Shown in pieces: positions 1 to 30,883 of a stretch of DNA of 64,000 nucleotides. The notes under the pieces were generated by a model. It saw nothing but the letters and a program-made list of their open reading frames with translations. It was not told the DNA's origin and searched no databases. The DNA is taken from sequence record PZ496581.1, one strand, 5' to 3'. Both the position numbers and the translations under genes were made by a program. This stretch comes from a phage. Numbering within the stretch: the first letter of the stretch is position 1; each line of letters begins with the position of its first letter.

Positions 1-172
1 TACCAAGGTTATCGTCGGTATTGAACAGTTTACCAGGAGAAATAAATTTTTCGTCCTGAATCATTTTTAAAATATGTTCTAATGGAAGGTTATATTTTTG
101 GGCAAAATAAGGAAGTCCAGATTGCCAGCTTAAACATACACCATCAATATCAGTCAAAATAGTAGGCTTCAT
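1..172 (-). CDS. Partial CDS (N-terminus only; continues beyond window start): HAD-superfamily hydrolase-like
   Basis: ATG at 172 overlaps stop of 169..636 (ATGA); translation MKPTILTDIDGVCLSW... carries a DxDGV HAD motif-I-like signature. Confidence 0.4.
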   Translation of the reverse strand, partial: MKPTILTDIDGVCLSWQSGLPYFAQKYNLPLEHILKMIQDEKFISPGKLFNTDDNLG

Positions 173-636
173 AAAGAGTCTCTTAATAGGTTTAACACGT
201 CAATAAATTCATCTTCAGTTAGTATTGTATCATCTTTTGTTAGGTGGCTGGCCATGCTGTGCTTCAAAATTTTTCCTTTAGAGGCTTGTAAGGCATCACG
301 AAACCCCTTGTTTTGGATCGCGGCTTCAAAATATGCATTTGTGTATAATTCTTTCCACGCTTCGGAGTATCTTGAAAATGGAACTCCTAACCAGAAGAGA
401 GTCCCACTGTCCTGAGCTCTTGCGTAAGACCTTCCAGCTTGCTGTGCAGCCAATCCAGACAACCCAAATATACGTCTTTGTTGTTCAACATTTTTCACCT
501 TACATCCTTGGAGAAATCCTTCAAGACCTCCGAATTGAATACCATCCATAACAAAAGGCCATTGAGCAAAGTTACTTAATGCACATGACGGCCATTTGAA
601 ATTACTTCTTATTTCTAATTCAGACATCTTTAACAC
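169..636 (-). CDS. Hypothetical early protein (155 aa)
   Basis: Track ORF on the early-gene strand, tightly packed with neighbours; no motif recognised. Confidence 0.5.
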   Translation of the reverse strand: MLKMSELEIRSNFKWPSCALSNFAQWPFVMDGIQFGGLEGFLQGCKVKNVEQQRRIFGLSGLAAQQAGRSYARAQDSGTLFWLGVPFSRYSEAWKELYTNAYFEAAIQNKGFRDALQASKGKILKHSMASHLTKDDTILTEDEFIDVLNLLRDSL

Positions 637-15176: not shown

Positions 15177-15488
15177 TTATACCGCCATTTTAGCTTTGAT
15201 AGTTGGATGAGATTCGTAATTTTTAAGAACGAAATCAGAATGTGTCATCGTTCCAGTAACCCAGTCCATTTGGATTTTTGTAGGCCAATTCTCAAAATTA
15301 CTAGGCCAATTAATTTCAAGAGAACATAATTCTTTAGGTTCACGACGAAGAACTTCTTTGCATTGTTCTACATGATTGCTGTAGATATGCGTGTTGCCGC
15401 CTGAGAACACTAAATCACCTGGGATAAGGTTACACATCTTCGCTACAATATGCGTCAAGGCAGCGTACGAGGCAATGTTGAACGGCAG
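15177..15488 (-). CDS. td: Thymidylate synthase, exon 2 (103 codons plus stop)
   Basis: LPFNIASYAALTHIVAKMCNLIPGDLVFSGGNTHIY is the TS C-terminal core; exon begins CUG CCG UUC immediately after the intron-terminal ...AUG. Confidence 0.8.
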   Translation of the reverse strand: MPFNIASYAALTHIVAKMCNLIPGDLVFSGGNTHIYSNHVEQCKEVLRREPKELCSLEINWPSNFENWPTKIQMDWVTGTMTHSDFVLKNYESHPTIKAKMAV

Positions 15489-16504
15489 CATTATGTTCAG
15501 ATAAGGTCGTTAATCTTATCCCGGAATTATATCCAGCTGCATGTCACCATGCAGAGCAGACTATATCTCCAACTTGTTAAAGCAAGTTGTCTATCGTTTC
15601 GAGTCACTTGACCCTACTCCCTAAAGGGATAGTCGTTAGGCATTTATGTAGAACCAATTCCACTTATCAGATTTTACACGGTAAGTAACTAATCCTGATG
15701 AAATTTCAAAATGTCTAGCCGCATCGGCTGCACATTCAAAAATAATCCCATCGCATGAAATCTTTTTGATGTTAGCTGGCTTTTTGCCTTTCATCTTTTC
15801 AGATAGTTTAGTTTTAGTTTTTTCTGAATGTTTGTGATTAAAGAACGGGTTATTTTCACCTGAACGTTTTCGGCACTTTCCACAAGTATCGGCCGAAGAT
15901 GGTATGCGAACACCGCATTTACAAAACTTGTGGTTTTCTGGATTCCATCGGCCATTTTTACTTCCGTGTTTACCATAAAGAGCTTTCCGACCATCAGGAC
16001 CAAGCTTAAGCATCTTAGCTTTAACAGTTTCAGCTCGTTTCTTAGCAATTTCTTCTTTTAATGGATGATTTGAAAGCACATCGCCAAAAGACGCATCAGC
16101 AATATTATATCCATTAATTTTAGAATTTAGCTCTTTAATCCAAAAATTTTCTCGTTCAATAATCAAATCTTTCTCATATGGAATTTCTTCCAGTACAGAG
16201 CATTCAAAAACATTACCATGTTTATTAAAAGACCTTTGAAATTTTATAGAAGAGTGAACACCGTTTTCAAGGTCTTTAAAATGTCTCTTCCATCTTTTCT
16301 CAAAATCTTTAGCACTTCCAACATACACTTTACCGTTTAAAGTGTTTTTAATCTGATAAATTCCGCTTTTCATAAACACCTCTTTTTATATAGAAGTATT
16401 TATTAAAGGGTAGTCCTACAATTTAGCACGGGATTGTCTACTAGAGAGGTCCCCCGTTTAGATAGATTACAAGTATAAGTCACCTTATACCTAGGCCTAA
16501 ATTA
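15489..16504 (-). mobile_element. Group I self-splicing intron in td (1016 nt) carrying a homing-endonuclease ORF
   Basis: Intron 5' end UAAUUUAGGCCUAGGUAUAAGGUGACUUAUACUUGUAAUCUAUCUAAACGGGG closely matches the remembered T4 td intron; exon 1 ends GGU; length matches T4. Confidence 0.8.
15636..16373 (-). CDS. GIY-YIG homing endonuclease I-TevI (245 aa)
   Basis: MKSGIYQIKNTLNGKVYVGSAKDFEKRWKRH... plus C-terminal zinc finger CKCG...CGKC; near-identical to remembered I-TevI. Confidence 0.9.
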   Translation of the reverse strand: MKSGIYQIKNTLNGKVYVGSAKDFEKRWKRHFKDLENGVHSSIKFQRSFNKHGNVFECSVLEEIPYEKDLIIERENFWIKELNSKINGYNIADASFGDVLSNHPLKEEIAKKRAETVKAKMLKLGPDGRKALYGKHGSKNGRWNPENHKFCKCGVRIPSSADTCGKCRKRSGENNPFFNHKHSEKTKTKLSEKMKGKKPANIKKISCDGIIFECAADAARHFEISSGLVTYRVKSDKWNWFYINA

Positions 16505-17878
<1,374 letters not shown>

Positions 17879-18144: not shown

Positions 18145-18151
18145 TTTTATT

Positions 18152-18191
18152 TGATAGGGCTACTATAACATAGCCCTATCTTGTTATAAAC
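18152..18191 (-). promoter_or_regulatory. Early promoter module (-35 GTTTAT, -10 TATAGT) with 9-bp inverted repeat gatagggct/agccctatc
   Basis: -10 lies in the hairpin loop; upstream of the ATG at 18144. Confidence 0.4.
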
Positions 18192-18672: not shown

Positions 18673-18690
18673 GGGAGACCGAAGTCTCCC
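18673..18690 (-). terminator. UUCG-tetraloop hairpin terminator-like element downstream of gene 32
   Basis: gggagac-cgaa-gtctccc followed by UUUU on the minus RNA. Confidence 0.45.
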
Positions 18691-18696
18691 AATTTA

Positions 18697-19614
18697 TTAT
18701 AGACCAGCTAACAGGTCATCGAGGTCGCCATCATCAGAGGATGAGGTAGAGCTCATGAAGTCATCTTCAGTTTTTGCAGAACTAAAGGCTTCCATGTCTT
18801 TATCAAAATCGTCAAGGTCAGAAGCAACTTTATCTGCAACAGAAGCTGCTGCGGCTGCTGCACCACCAAGAGCGGCAGTACCAAGAGCGGCAGTACCAAG
18901 AACCTTAGCGAAAGATTCATTTAATTTTTCAAAGGATTTGAACTGGTCTTTAGCCGTCAAAGTAGTAAGGTCTACCATCTGGTCATATAGTTCTTTCTGG
19001 AATGCTTCGTCATTAATACGAGGAATTTCAGATTGACCCAAGAATTTAGATTCGTCATAGTTGCTAAAACCTGAAACCTGCTTAGCTTTCAGAACGAAGT
19101 TAGCACCTTCAAACGGACAAGTAACATCAACTGGAGTTTCACCCATTTCGGTATCAACAGCAATCATTGCATTGATTTTGTCCCAAATCTTTTTACCGAA
19201 ACGATATTTAAATACTTTACCTTCGTTATCTGGAGCTTGAGGGTCTTTAACAACCAGAATATTAGCCCAATAAGAAGTTTTACGTTTCAGTTGAGAATAT
19301 TCATTTTTGTTGGTATTGTACAGGTCATTTTTACTAATGTACTGACATACAGGACAAGAGTCATAATCACCATGTGTAGAAGAGCAATTTTCAATATACC
19401 ATTTACCATTTTTCTTGAAACCGTGGTTAACAAGAATTGCAAATGGTAGTGCATCATCAGTTTTTGCTGGCAAGAAACGAATTACCGCTTGACCATTACC
19501 GGATGCATCTAGCTTCAGCTTCCATTCGCCTTTATCTTCTGAAGAGAAACCTTTGTTACCATTCAGTTTAGCCATTTGAGCAGCGAGGTCAGCAGTAGAT
19601 TTACGTTTAAACAT
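18697..19614 (-). CDS. 32: gp32 single-stranded DNA-binding protein (305 aa)
   Basis: Zinc site [16 protein letters not shown] and acidic C-terminus [12 protein letters not shown]; near-identical to remembered T4 gp32, with an extra LGTAA repeat. Confidence 0.9.
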
Positions 19615-19621
19615 GGATTAT

Positions 19622-19735
19622 TACCTTTTATTTAGATTATTTAATTTATTTACAGTTGGTTGCTACGACACTAGTTGGTTGCTACGACACTTATACCTCG
19701 TAGCTGGTATGATTTATTTATAAAGTAATTTTAAC
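19622..19735 (-). promoter_or_regulatory. Gene 32 5' leader: candidate translational operator (structured element plus AU-rich tract)
   Basis: Stem GCUACGA/UCGUAGC, then CAACCAAC, then AU-rich UAAAUAAAUUAAAUAAUCUAAAUAAAAGG before the AUG; contains a 19-bp tandem duplication. Confidence 0.5.
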
Positions 19736-19751
19736 ACACAAGAAATAAAGC

Positions 19752-20405
19752 TTAATACTTACATGATTTGATTGTTTCTATGAACAATTTCTTAGCAGCA
19801 TTTCCATCGATTTGAAGTATTTTTCGATATGCCTTTAATTTGGTAGAATAATTTTGCCAGACTAAATTATCGGTGAGTTCGTCGTGCTTATCTATAATAT
19901 TCAAAAACGAGTCCAACAATAAGAAAGTTTCAAATGAAATTATATTGCTTTGTAGCAATTTAAATATGTAGCTCGACTGAACGTTGTTATTATAATCAAA
20001 TATCTCTTGAAGCGCACTAACTTCAACTTTCTTACTGAAATAGTAGATGTTACGTACGTCTTCAGCAAACGTCTCTTTAGCTTGTTTTAGTCGTCCAATA
20101 TATTCCCTATAGAAAACTAATGCATCAGCGTCTGATATCTCACCAATCCATGCGTCTTGGTTAGCAACTAAGTTGCTTATGAATATCAAGGTGAGTTCCT
20201 TCAATTTATATTTCTCTGATAGTTTTTCAAAGAAATATTTATCTCGGCGTTTTTGATACGCATTATCCGAAACACGCATGCACCAGTTATATTTGATTAC
20301 GTCATACCGACCACCAAAGTGGTTTTTGCACATCAAGTATAGTTTATATACTGATTTACCGTTAATATAACGTTCTCCGTCAGGAGGCATACGTATTTTA
20401 ATCAT
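19752..20405 (-). CDS. 59: gp59 helicase loader (217 aa)
   Basis: MIKIRMPPDGERYINGKSVYKLYLM...KYNWCMRVSD...QSSYIFKLLQSNIISFETF near-identical to remembered T4 gp59. Confidence 0.9.
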   Translation of the reverse strand: MIKIRMPPDGERYINGKSVYKLYLMCKNHFGGRYDVIKYNWCMRVSDNAYQKRRDKYFFEKLSEKYKLKELTLIFISNLVANQDAWIGEISDADALVFYREYIGRLKQAKETFAEDVRNIYYFSKKVEVSALQEIFDYNNNVQSSYIFKLLQSNIISFETFLLLDSFLNIIDKHDELTDNLVWQNYSTKLKAYRKILQIDGNAAKKLFIETIKSCKY

Positions 20406-27760: not shown

Positions 27761-30700
27761 ATGGCTACATTAAAACAGATACAATTTAAAAGAAGCAAAG
27801 TGGCAGGAGTTAATCCTACTGCAGCACAATTAGCCGAAGGCGAATTAGCGATAAACTTAAAAGATCGAACTCTTTTTACTAAAGATGACCTCGGTAATAT
27901 TATTAGCCTAGGCTTTGCTAAGGGCGGGGATATTAACGGTAATGTAACTCAAAATGGTGATTATTTACAAAACGGCACATATAATCTTAATGGAAATCAG
28001 TTTGTTTATGCAGGAAAATATATTGAATTTTTACCTAAAATAGCTGGTAATGGCGCTTGGGCAAATCAACACCTAAATAAAGCTCCTATCTTTACAGATT
28101 TAAGTTCAACTACTTCTGTTTCAGAATACCATCCGCTGATTAAACAACGCTATAAAGATGGAACTTTTTCTGCTGGTACATTAGTAAACGAAGGTAGTTT
28201 TAAATTCCATTATATTGATGAAACCGGGACTTCAAAATACTGGACTTTTAATAGAAATGGTAATTTCATCGTAGATTCTGGCAATATTGAAGTTCGTGCC
28301 GGTAATATTTCTGCTTCAGGCAATATAAATTCAGCTACTGGGCGAGTTTCGGCTCCTCGTGTCATTACAAAAAATATTAATTTAAGTACAAAGACTTTTA
28401 TTCCTAATAACGACGCCGGGTATGATTTAGTTTCTTTGCCTACTTGGATTTATAATCCGCCGGCAGATGGTTCTGACCGTAATACAAATGGTCTTAACTA
28501 CATTCGTAAGATGAGAGCTTCAAATACTTCTAGTATTTTCCATGAAATAGTTGATTGCCGTTCAGGAAAGCCACAAGAAATTTCTTGGTGGACAGGTGTA
28601 GGCCCGGAATCTTTCCAATGGGCGTTTGATACCTCCGGTCGTATTACTGCAGGTAAATCGATTTCGGTAGGTCTTCCTGATAATGGTACAAATGGACGTT
28701 ATCCTTTAGATTCTGCGATTTCTATAGGTATTGCAATTGGTGATAACGACACCGGTATTAAATGGGTCCGCGACGGTGTTATTGATTTCATGGCTAACGG
28801 TATTTCATCCGCTACCATTTTGAATAACGGTATTAACAGCACTAAGAAATTGATGGTCGGTTATAGCCGCGATTCTGGTACTACTTGGGATTACCCAAAT
28901 AACAACCAAGCAATGTTTACTGCGCGTACCGATGTTGATGGTAATAATAACGGCGATGGGCAAACTCATATCGGTTATAGCAGCAATGCCAAGATGTATC
29001 ACTATTTCCGTGGTACAGGTCGTATGTCCGTTAGTATGGACGATGGACTTCTTGTTGAGCCTGGCATTTTAGATATTAAAACCGGTTCTAATAGCGTTGC
29101 TATTAGAGCAGACGGAACAATTAACTCCACCCAACGTATTTCAATGCGTACGGGCTTGTTTTTAAATGGTGATGATAATACCAATGCTTTGTCATTTAAA
29201 GCGCCTACAGGTGTTGACGGGACAAAAACCATTAACTGGGATGCAGGTACTCGTAATGGTCAGAATAAAAATACTGTAACCATTAAAGCATGGGGTAACT
29301 CATTTAACGCTGAAAAGGGTAATAGAGAAACTGTATTTGAAGTATCAGATTCACAAGGTTATTATTTTTATGCTCAACGTACCAACCCGGCTTCTGGTGA
29401 AACAGTAGGTCCGGTTAACTTTAAATTTAACGGAACTGTCGAAACAGGCCGTATCATAGGCCTTGGTAATATAAGTGCCTCCGGTACAGGTTCTTTTGGT
29501 GGCAATGTTACTATGTCTAACGGTTTGTTTGTCCAAGGTGGTTCTTCTATTACTGGACAAGTTAAAATTGGTGGAACAGCTGATGCATTAAGAATTTGGA
29601 ATGCTGAATACGGGGCTATTTTCCGTAGTTCTGAAGATAAGCTTTATATTATTCCAACTCCACAGAATGCTGGTGAATCAGGTGGTATTTCTAATTTACG
29701 TCCGTTCTATATTACATTAAGTACCGGTAAAGTTTCTATGGATCATGATGTAGATATCGGCGGCGGTAGATTTAAAGTAGAAGCGGCTGGAACTACGGCT
29801 GGTCAACGCATAACAGTAAATATGGCATCAGATGCTATTAGAATAAATGCTCCAACACAAGAGTCTTCTAACTTCATTCAAGGACGTAAAGCAGATGTTC
29901 CGAAATGGTATTTAGGTATTGGCGATGGCGGCAACGTCGTTCGTATGCACAGCTACACATATTCACATGGTATTGCATTAAACTCTGATTCTGTCGATAT
30001 TACTAAACCATTAAAAGTTGGTAATGCTCAATTCGGTACTGATGGTAATATTACTGGCGGTTCTGGTAATTTTGCTAACTTGAATACCACAATAAATAAC
30101 CTTAAGACGGATATTGTCTCGAGTTACCCAATTGGTGCTCCGATTCCTTGGCCTACTGATACACCTCCTGAAGGTTATGCCATAATGGAAGGTCAAACAT
30201 TTGATGTTGGCTTGTATCCTAAGTTAGCTGCGGTGTATCCTTCCGGCGCTCTGCCTGATATGCGTGGTCAAACTATCAAGGGTAAACCATCTGGGCGTGC
30301 TGTATTAAGTACAGAAGCAGATGGTGTTAAGTCACATAGCCATAGTGCAAGTGCATCAAGCACAGATTTGGGTACTAAAAACACATCAAGTTTTGATTAT
30401 GGTACTAAAACATCTTCAAGCTTTGATTATGGTACTAAGACCAGTAATACCACTGGTGACCATAACCATACAGTAAGCGGTACCACTGACGCAGCAGGTG
30501 ACCACCAGCACTCACAGACCGGTCCAAGGGGTCCTAATAATCAACCAACAGGAATATATCCTAATGGATCTACTCAAATTAGCGGAACCCTGGTTGTTGG
30601 TTTTGGCCTAAGCAACGGTGTTGTGCCTGGTACAAGCCAATATATTGCAAAGTCATCGACAGAAGGTAACCATACACACTCTTGGTCTGGTACTACTAGC

Positions 30701-30883
30701 TCTACGGGTAACCATGCCCATACCGTTGGTATTGGTGCCCATACACATACTGTAGGTATTGGTGCCCACTCTCATTCGGTAGCGATTGGTTCTCATGGTC
30801 ATACAATAACTGTAAATGCCACAGGAAATACAGAAAACACAGTTAAAAACGTTGCTTTTAACTATATCGTTCGTTTAGCATAA
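27761..30883 (+). CDS. 37: gp37 long tail fibre distal subunit with His-rich tip (1040 aa)
   Basis: C-terminal HxH repeats GNHTHSWSG...[34 protein letters not shown] and terminal [11 protein letters not shown] as in T4-type gp37. Confidence 0.9.

Follow-up and report, generated by a model that had tools for sequence, protein, structure and literature searches.

The gene 32 operator is a textbook pseudoknot in autogenous translational control. In T4 and RB69, autorepression sets in once gp32 exceeds the available single-stranded DNA, and the specificity of the protein is thought to depend on UUAAA/UAAA units. According to the accepted mechanism, gp32 nucleates at the pseudoknot and spreads cooperatively over the AU-rich tract and the RBS, as summarized together with the T2 NMR structure and the McPheeters/Shamoo footprints of the T4/T2 operator (PMC3014915). 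For RB69, experiments demonstrated that gp32 represses its own translation, and probing with DMS, DEPC, and RNase V1 indicated that the pseudoknot region is RNase V1 sensitive and that A(-45)..A(-1) is unstructured (Borjac-Natour, Petrov and Karam 2004, PMC535899). In the same study, strong protection on RB69 RNA covered U(-14)..G(-61) with RB69 gp32 and C(-42)..G(-61) with T4 gp32, the C-terminal domain and the mRNA target were speculated to co-diverge, and a small C-terminal deletion in T4 gp32 reportedly left autogenous control unaffected (PMC535899). How gp32 discriminates its own mRNA from other RNA is described as still unresolved (PMC535899, PMC3014915).

The window, that is, the whole stretch of 64,000 nt analyzed here (sequence record PZ496581.1), comes from a Mosigvirus (RB69-like, Tevenvirinae) and shows ~97-98% identity to PaulHMueller, APCEc01, JK36, and G53 over 6 kb; the nearest relatives differ from it by ~108 SNPs per 6 kb, and the region is otherwise a normal diverged Mosigvirus region. 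Gene 32 (18697..19614, minus strand, with the AUG at 19612-19614) encodes a 305-aa gp32, the single-stranded DNA binding protein and repressor, which is 97% identical to annotated Mosigvirus gp32; in a gp32 alignment, the MFKRK motif of the N-terminal cooperativity segment and the Zn-binding Cys-X3-His-X5-Cys-X2-Cys residues (C77, H81, C87, and C90) were invariant. Upstream lies gene 59, the helicase loader (19752..20405, minus strand), which was assigned from the ORF list and the annotation of matching genes in relatives. Directly past the gene 32 stop lies a terminator-like hairpin (18673..18690, minus strand), GGGAGAC-UUCG-GUCUCCC with a U run behind it, and the G53 record annotates a terminator at this 3' hairpin. 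Because gene 32 occupies 18697-19614 and gene 59 ends at 19752, both on the minus strand, the repeat considered here falls within the 59-32 intercistronic leader (19615-19751, minus strand), which contains the operator; the original prediction had thus placed it correctly in the leader of gene 32.

Several features elsewhere in the window were also recorded. Two ORFs (16502-17053 and 15177-15491, minus strand) together make up thymidylate synthase and are separated by an insert of ~1 kb, which carries a GIY-YIG-type ORF (15636-16379; GIYQIKN...KVYVGSA) and which APCEc01 lacks. By analogy with T4, this insert looks like the td group I intron with its homing endonuclease; a search of the suspected td intron against Rfam at the gathering threshold returned no match. 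One nucleotide present in APCEc01, JK36, and G53 is missing from the window at ~18148, where a spacer separates two small ORFs of the frd region; the site is just 3' (in the minus-strand sense) of a strong hairpin, GATAGGGCTA...TAGCCCTATC (~18151-18178). The long-tail-fibre gene region contains imperfect tandems of 30 nt and 27 nt (30371-30438 and 30712-30790, 80-87% matches), with small indels clustered there relative to APCEc01.

To describe the operator, the leader was read in the mRNA sense, i.e., from high to low coordinates on the minus strand, as ...UAUAAAUAAAUC AUACC A GCUACGA GGUAU AAGUG UCGUAGC AACCAACU, followed by AGUG UCGUAGC AACCAACU GUAAAUAAAUUAAAUAAUCUAAAUAAAAGGUAAUAAUCC AUG. 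A pseudoknot scan revealed an H-type pseudoknot, AUACC-A-GCUACGA-GGUAU-AAGUG-UCGUAGC, with a stem 1 (S1) of 5 bp, a loop 1 of one A, a stem 2 (S2) of 7 bp, and a loop 2 of AAGUG. The S1 5' strand AUACC (19706..19710), supported by the scan and covariation, corresponds to RB69 -76..-72 and is separated by the single nucleotide of loop 1 (19705) from the S2 5' strand GCUACGA (19698..19704), which occurs in single copy and was found by the scan, by covariation, and by an inverted-repeat search. The S1 3' strand GGUAU (19693..19697; scan, covariation, and RB69 match) is followed by loop 2 (19688..19692; scan and RB69 match), the final 4 nt of which, AGUG, open the duplicated unit. The unit nearer the mRNA 5' end (19673..19691), equal to RB69 A(-56)..U(-38), consists of AGUG, the S2 3' strand UCGUAGC (19681-19687), and AACCAACU (19673-19680), whereas the second unit (19654..19672), the 19 nt missing in relatives, consists of AGUG, a spare UCGUAGC (19662-19668), and AACCAACU (19654-19661). 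Downstream, an unstructured AU-rich tract of UAAAUAAAU/UAAAUAAUC 9-mers (19615..19653), in which Tandem Repeats Finder (TRF) reported a 9-nt array at 19628-19652, includes the Shine-Dalgarno GG (19624-19625). All of these elements are on the minus strand, as is TATAAATA (19715..19722), a putative T4 late promoter immediately 5' of the pseudoknot that is kept in all aligned relatives; it fits the T4 late-promoter consensus, from which we presume its promoter role.

As had been anticipated, a gp32 operator layout is made up here of the stem, CAACCAACU, and the AU-rich tract. The GCUACGA/UCGUAGC stem is indeed a perfect 7-bp inverted repeat, but it had been taken for a plain hairpin, and the second, interleaved stem AUACC/GGUAU had been overlooked. 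From the first S1 base to the end of AACCAACU (-76..-38), the window is the same as RB69 base for base, and the 11 nucleotides to which the RB69 paper assigns positions (G-61, A-45, C-42, A-21, U-20, U-14, G-10, G-9, U-8, U-2, and A-1) all fit the RB69 record. The adjoining tract is longer than 40 nt, A+U-rich, and provided with UUAAA/UAAA repeats, and it runs into the Shine-Dalgarno and the AUG. Judged by its sequence, the leader is thus furnished with every testable feature of a translational operator of the T4/RB69 gene 32 type; gp32 binding and repression, known from experiments on the identical RB69 sequence, would by analogy extend to the duplicated allele.

Covariation further supported the pseudoknot. 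In a small set of four sequence types (window/RB69, T4, a T2-type IMG/VR contig, and Klebsiella phage JD18), aligned at equal length with only loop 2 trimmed to hold the stems in register, 7/12 pairs had changed on both sides, and pairing was present in 95.8% of cells compared with 23-56% when the partners were slid by 1-3 columns, a result in agreement with the published structures. The corresponding pseudoknots are UGCC-A-GCUAUGA-GGUA-AAGUG-UCAUAGC in T4, UGACC-A-GCUAUGA-GGUCA-UACAUCG-UCAUAGC in the T2-type contig (L022), and GUCC-A-GUUGCAA-GGAC-CCAUG-UUGCAAC, followed by AACAACUGU, in JD18. The JD18 pseudoknot (L018) lies ~30-60 nt upstream of gene 32 and has the same architecture with almost wholly different stem sequences. 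No such pseudoknot was found over the 130 nt preceding gene 32 in PG7, STML-198, JS98, Aeromonas phage 31, or Delraymugoa. The IMG/VR sample of gp32 loci comprised 80 loci, only ~5 of which exceeded 50% identity, the others being at 35-45%, and L022 was useful among them; further pattern matches (L023, L017, L034, and others), ~70-100 nt upstream, were chance-like, with those in L023 and L017 lying inside gene 59 coding sequence. Searching the leader against Rfam 15 at E values up to 10 gave no family match, which is uninformative should Rfam hold no such model, and the snoRNA and CRISPR matches obtained were at chance level. A plus-strand sigma-70-like site (19684-19713, 9/12), partly within the repeat, was set aside, the count of such sites in the region not being above that of shuffles. 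In addition, an 11-nt inverted repeat of 82% complementarity links 19579-19589 (gene 32 codons 9-12, ACCUCGCUGCU) with 19695-19705 (pseudoknot strands, AGCUACGAGGU).

Within this operator, AGTTGGTTGCTACGACACT occurs twice in perfect tandem, head to tail (19654-19672 and 19673-19691). TRF reported a period of 19, 2.0 copies, 100% matches, and a score of 76 for 19654-19691, and a separate repeat search returned the same two 19-nt copies with 100% identity. A third copy with up to 3 mismatches was not found in the 64-kb window, and 0.00 were expected from 100 shuffles. The 19-nt tandem duplication is genuine and no chance event, and the original prediction was right both about its position and perfection and about its content, namely, the 3' stem half and the CAACCAACU segment. 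More exactly, the duplicated unit comprises the 4 nt that end loop 2, the S2 3' strand in full, and AACCAACU, which forms the first 8 nt of the tract; in RB69 numbering it is A(-56)..U(-38), and the event can equivalently be described as a 19-nt insertion, with 47% G+C, between U(-38) and G(-37). The unit overlaps 15/20 nt of G(-61)..C(-42), the segment of RB69 RNA most strongly protected by both gp32 proteins.

The duplication is private to this genome. APCEc01, JK36, and G53, all of the genus Mosigvirus, each lack exactly one 19-nt unit, and a base-by-base alignment of eight Mosigvirus leaders revealed a single copy in 8/8, with the pseudoknot and the linker invariant, so that the related leaders, with which the original prediction had proposed a comparison, share the operator and in no case the duplication. 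Removal of one copy turns the window leader into the JK45 allele, identical across the 142 nt aligned (-127..+15). The operator core was detected in 152 phage records, with a single copy in all 30 among the matches listed, as judged from the two-copy query being covered as two overlapping pieces over 58 nt. A junction-centred 34-mer, which matches only if the unit is duplicated, gave 0 matches in 50,697 phage records and 0 in 5,426 E. coli genomes, and exact junction patterns gave 0 matches in IMG/VR, JGI metagenome contigs, and GTDB genomes. Loss of junction matches through low-complexity masking was excluded by a local megablast control with DUST on, in which the junction query survived the filter. 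The literature search for a duplication in the gene 32 operator retrieved no report of a duplicated pseudoknot strand. Moreover, the duplication is recent, because the two copies are identical and the rest of the leader is unchanged.

Such privacy would also be expected if the duplication were no natural allele and had arisen as an error of sequencing or assembly, or by mutation during laboratory propagation or engineering of the isolate. Besides its absence from every other sequence searched, this explanation could draw on the duplication junction, GTAGCAACCAACTAGTGTCGTAGC, which creates a SpeI site (the palindrome ACTAGT, 19670-19675), and on the lack of flanking microhomology: in the single-copy sequence (UAUA/AGUG...AACU/GUAAAU, slashes marking the limits of the unit), the base preceding the unit is A and the last base of the unit is U, while the base after the unit is G and its first base is A, so that the mark of slippage that was sought is absent. 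However, a perfect tandem of 38 nt is much shorter than a read, assemblers seldom generate such repeats, and the surrounding region is normal diverged Mosigvirus sequence with its ~108 SNPs per 6 kb. The insertion also brings in nothing from a vector or linker and copies the adjacent bases exactly; a propagation mutant would nonetheless be a real biological allele. We therefore regard an artefactual or laboratory origin as improbable. The SpeI site is probably a coincidence, relevant should an engineered origin be suspected.

The duplication provides two perfect 7-bp S2 3' arms, 10 nt and 29 nt from the sole GCUACGA 5' arm, and the alternative pairings that had been anticipated are indeed created, with two UCGUAGC copies competing for one GCUACGA at near-equal predicted energy. 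When the proximal copy pairs (conformer P), the native RB69 pseudoknot would form, followed by an open tract of 66 nt instead of the 47 nt of the parental allele. When the distal copy pairs (conformer D), loop 2 would be 24 nt long, and the native junction of S2, AACCAACU, and the AU-rich sequence would be preserved together with the native 47-nt tract. The two conformers are mutually exclusive, and no native part of the operator is destroyed. The original prediction that the structured element is moved away from the AU-rich tract thus applies to the proximal conformer, whereas the distal conformer has the native pseudoknot-tract junction. It had also named an unaffected structured element as an outcome that would speak against it; that outcome has half come about, because the native pseudoknot sequence is fully intact.

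As the stems are identical, the balance between the two conformers is set by loop terms. The distal conformer was calculated to be less stable than the proximal one by +1.7 kcal/mol from loop entropy alone (~6% distal) and by +1.1 kcal/mol with S2 treated as a plain hairpin; constrained ensembles gave -0.6 to +0.8 kcal/mol, differences of -0.3 to +0.5 kcal/mol, corresponding to 31-61% distal depending on context, came from constrained partition functions in which the S1 strands were withheld from pairing, and unconstrained nested folding of the 57-nt element returned the distal pairing. Since ViennaRNA is unable to score pseudoknots, these values bracket the balance only between 6% and ~60% distal, and the two folds are predicted to differ by no more than about 1-2 kcal/mol. 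Co-transcriptional order would favor the proximal conformer. In this fold, prediction leaves the 66-nt tract open, with an MFE of -0.9 kcal/mol, an all-unpaired centroid, and z = +1.4 relative to shuffles. A conserved bistable switch is not indicated, because a second S2 3' strand is present in no relative among the aligned leaders, the listed operator-core records, and the phage records.

Folding also raised the idea that the spare UCGUAGC pairs over a long range with the gene 32 coding start, encloses the RBS, and alters translation independently of gp32. With the 3' limit set at +30, the MFE fold pairs the spare copy with +20..+29, at a gain of ~3.8 kcal/mol over the single-copy leader. The predicted long-range partner, however, shifts with each 3' context (+20..29, +22..33, +34..50, +144..149, and +230..243), the tract on its own has no folding advantage over shuffles, as its z score shows, and such weak helices would be melted by ribosomes and gp32. 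Because the partner changes with every 3' boundary, the helix between the spare copy and the coding region was rejected as not robust, and an effect by this route seems very improbable.

Mosigvirus gene 32 leaders vary in length only through the AU-rich UAAAUAAAU/UAAAUAAUC 9-mer array, the pseudoknot and AACCAACU being invariant, a natural polymorphism that the original prediction had overlooked. Tract lengths are 45 nt in RB69 and O157tp6, 46 nt in NHEP10, 47 nt in JK45, 51 nt in HX01, 54 nt in mogra and p000y, 55 nt in LNA2, 56 nt in PhAPEC2, and 63 nt in SHSML-52-1; no tract above 63 nt was found among the best 60 records when the longest natural leader was used as the query. The mogra record annotates a repeat_region in the 9-mer array of this leader. 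As relatives span 45-63 nt, the 66 nt of the window in its proximal conformer is only 3 nt past the natural range, and the tract is odd by its composition (47% G+C in the insert) and less so by its length.

The regulatory effect was estimated with a finite lattice of the McGhee-von Hippel type (site size of 7, cooperativity of 1000, and uniform affinity, sequence preference being ignored). Lengthening the tract from 47 to 66 nt lowered the gp32 concentration for half-coverage of the Shine-Dalgarno, expressed in 1/(K·omega), by 17% (1.94 to 1.61) when no nucleation bonus was given and by 4% (1.49 to 1.43) when the pseudoknot received a 100-fold bonus; values for the natural alleles ranged from 2.02 to 1.64 in this model. 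The predicted shift of the repression threshold is thus 4-17%, and any change of the set point would be of the same order as that caused by the 9-mer copy-number changes of relatives. Both this effect size and the balance of the conformers are modeled quantities. The uniform-affinity model may mislead, given that an insert of 47% G+C is unlike the natural AU-rich expansions, and the second copy could matter beyond its length because the segment overlaps 15/20 nt of the strongest gp32 footprint. Autoregulation is most likely retained, since neither conformer would lose the pseudoknot, the open AU-rich lattice, or the RBS. The altered autoregulation suggested in the original prediction would thus probably be a small effect. 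On the basis of this modeling, the reading that we favor, and consider reasonably probable, is a private and recent duplication in an RB69-type operator with autoregulation preserved and the set point shifted mildly at most.

A second duplication lies in gene 32 itself. At 18865-18901 (minus strand), TRF and the alignments identified a perfect in-frame 15-nt tandem of 2.5 copies (score 74), which adds GTAAL to the Gly/Ala linker before the acidic C-terminal tail, so that gp32 has 305 aa in the window versus 300 in close relatives. The GTAAL insertion is absent from the gp32 of T4, JD18, JS98, Aeromonas phage 31, and PG7, and the junction of this duplication had no match in phage records, the filter control being passed. 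In the alignment with APCEc01 (~47 kb, 96-97% identity), the only in-alignment indels of >5 nt were the 19-nt and 15-nt duplications, and the fact that both fall in gene 32 is a hint that they are not neutral but reflect selection or have a cause in common.

This pattern is compatible with an adaptive re-tuning of the gp32 supply, in which the operator duplication materially changes the set point, for instance by way of a longer lattice or a doubled footprint segment, and is functionally coupled to the GTAAL linker duplication. Two of the two indels of >5 nt in ~47 kb are perfect tandems within ~1 kb of gene 32, with a chance of ~0.02 (calculated post hoc) for a second event in the same 1-kb unit; both are private, the duplicated RNA covers most of the G(-61)..C(-42) footprint, and co-divergence of the C-terminal domain and the mRNA target has been proposed for RB69 (PMC535899). 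On the other hand, the lattice model yields a shift of merely 4-17%, natural tracts already reach 63 nt, and autogenous control in T4 reportedly withstands the small C-terminal deletion of gp32 (PMC535899). Nor do two events suffice for statistics, the p-value having been computed post hoc. Moreover, because the 15-nt unit is now present in 2.5 copies (1.5 before), the ancestor had a 7-nt flanking direct repeat, and a duplication between pre-existing 7-nt direct repeats reflects a slippage-prone context. Re-tuning is an unlikely explanation, and the coupling of the two duplications is at best a minority hypothesis of low probability. In its strongest form, a bistable pseudoknot with two registers toward the RBS, created by doubling the segment that gp32 protects best, and a 5-residue linker expansion altering how the acidic tail gates RNA binding would jointly re-set the gp32 level as a co-adapted pair; this proposal is quite doubtful, and, if true, the pair would be a caught-in-the-act case of the repressor-operator co-divergence proposed by Borjac-Natour et al.

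The duplicated leader is a natural allele that may serve as a ready-made construct for asking whether repression is set by the spacing between pseudoknot and RBS, by the length of the lattice, or by the footprinted sequence, given that the pseudoknot would lie 19 nt farther from the RBS in one fold and at native spacing in the other. Together with the natural alleles of 45-63 nt, it provides a gauge of how well the operator tolerates changes in length; if the effect is negligible, its value would be that of a record of length tolerance only.

Among known systems, the locus is close to the RB69 operator, with which the AU-rich 9-mer tract, the gene order of 59 then 32, and the repressor protein family are all shared. 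It differs from RB69 in the additional 19 nt, a copy of A(-56)..U(-38) that results in two possible S2 3' strands, in a tract of 66 nt versus 45 nt, in an SD-proximal region with 2 additional nt, a feature of the JK45/APCEc01 allele as well, and in the extra GTAAL of its gp32. With T4 and T2 it shares the H-type fold, in which S1 has 4-5 bp, loop 1 is a single A, S2 has 7 bp, and loop 2 has 5-7 nt, as well as the (A)ACCAACUGU and UUAAA/UAAA repeats that follow the pseudoknot and overlap the RBS, and the mechanism of pseudoknot nucleation followed by cooperative spreading would likewise be common to them. The stem sequences, by contrast, differ through compensatory changes, the tract measures 39 nt in T4 and 34 nt in the T2-type operator, and no duplication of a stem strand was reported for T4 or T2 in the literature searched. 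The Mosigvirus 9-mer alleles (e.g., SHSML-52-1, PhAPEC2, and mogra) likewise represent changes in tandem-repeat length, by which the tract gains 4 to 18 nt, and consist of AU-rich UAAAUAAAU/UAAAUAAUC units within the gp32-binding tract in many isolates. Unlike these alleles, the duplication in the window has 47% G+C, includes a pseudoknot strand, and occurs in a single genome; it is neither a new system nor a conserved switch but a new single-genome variant of a well-known operator.
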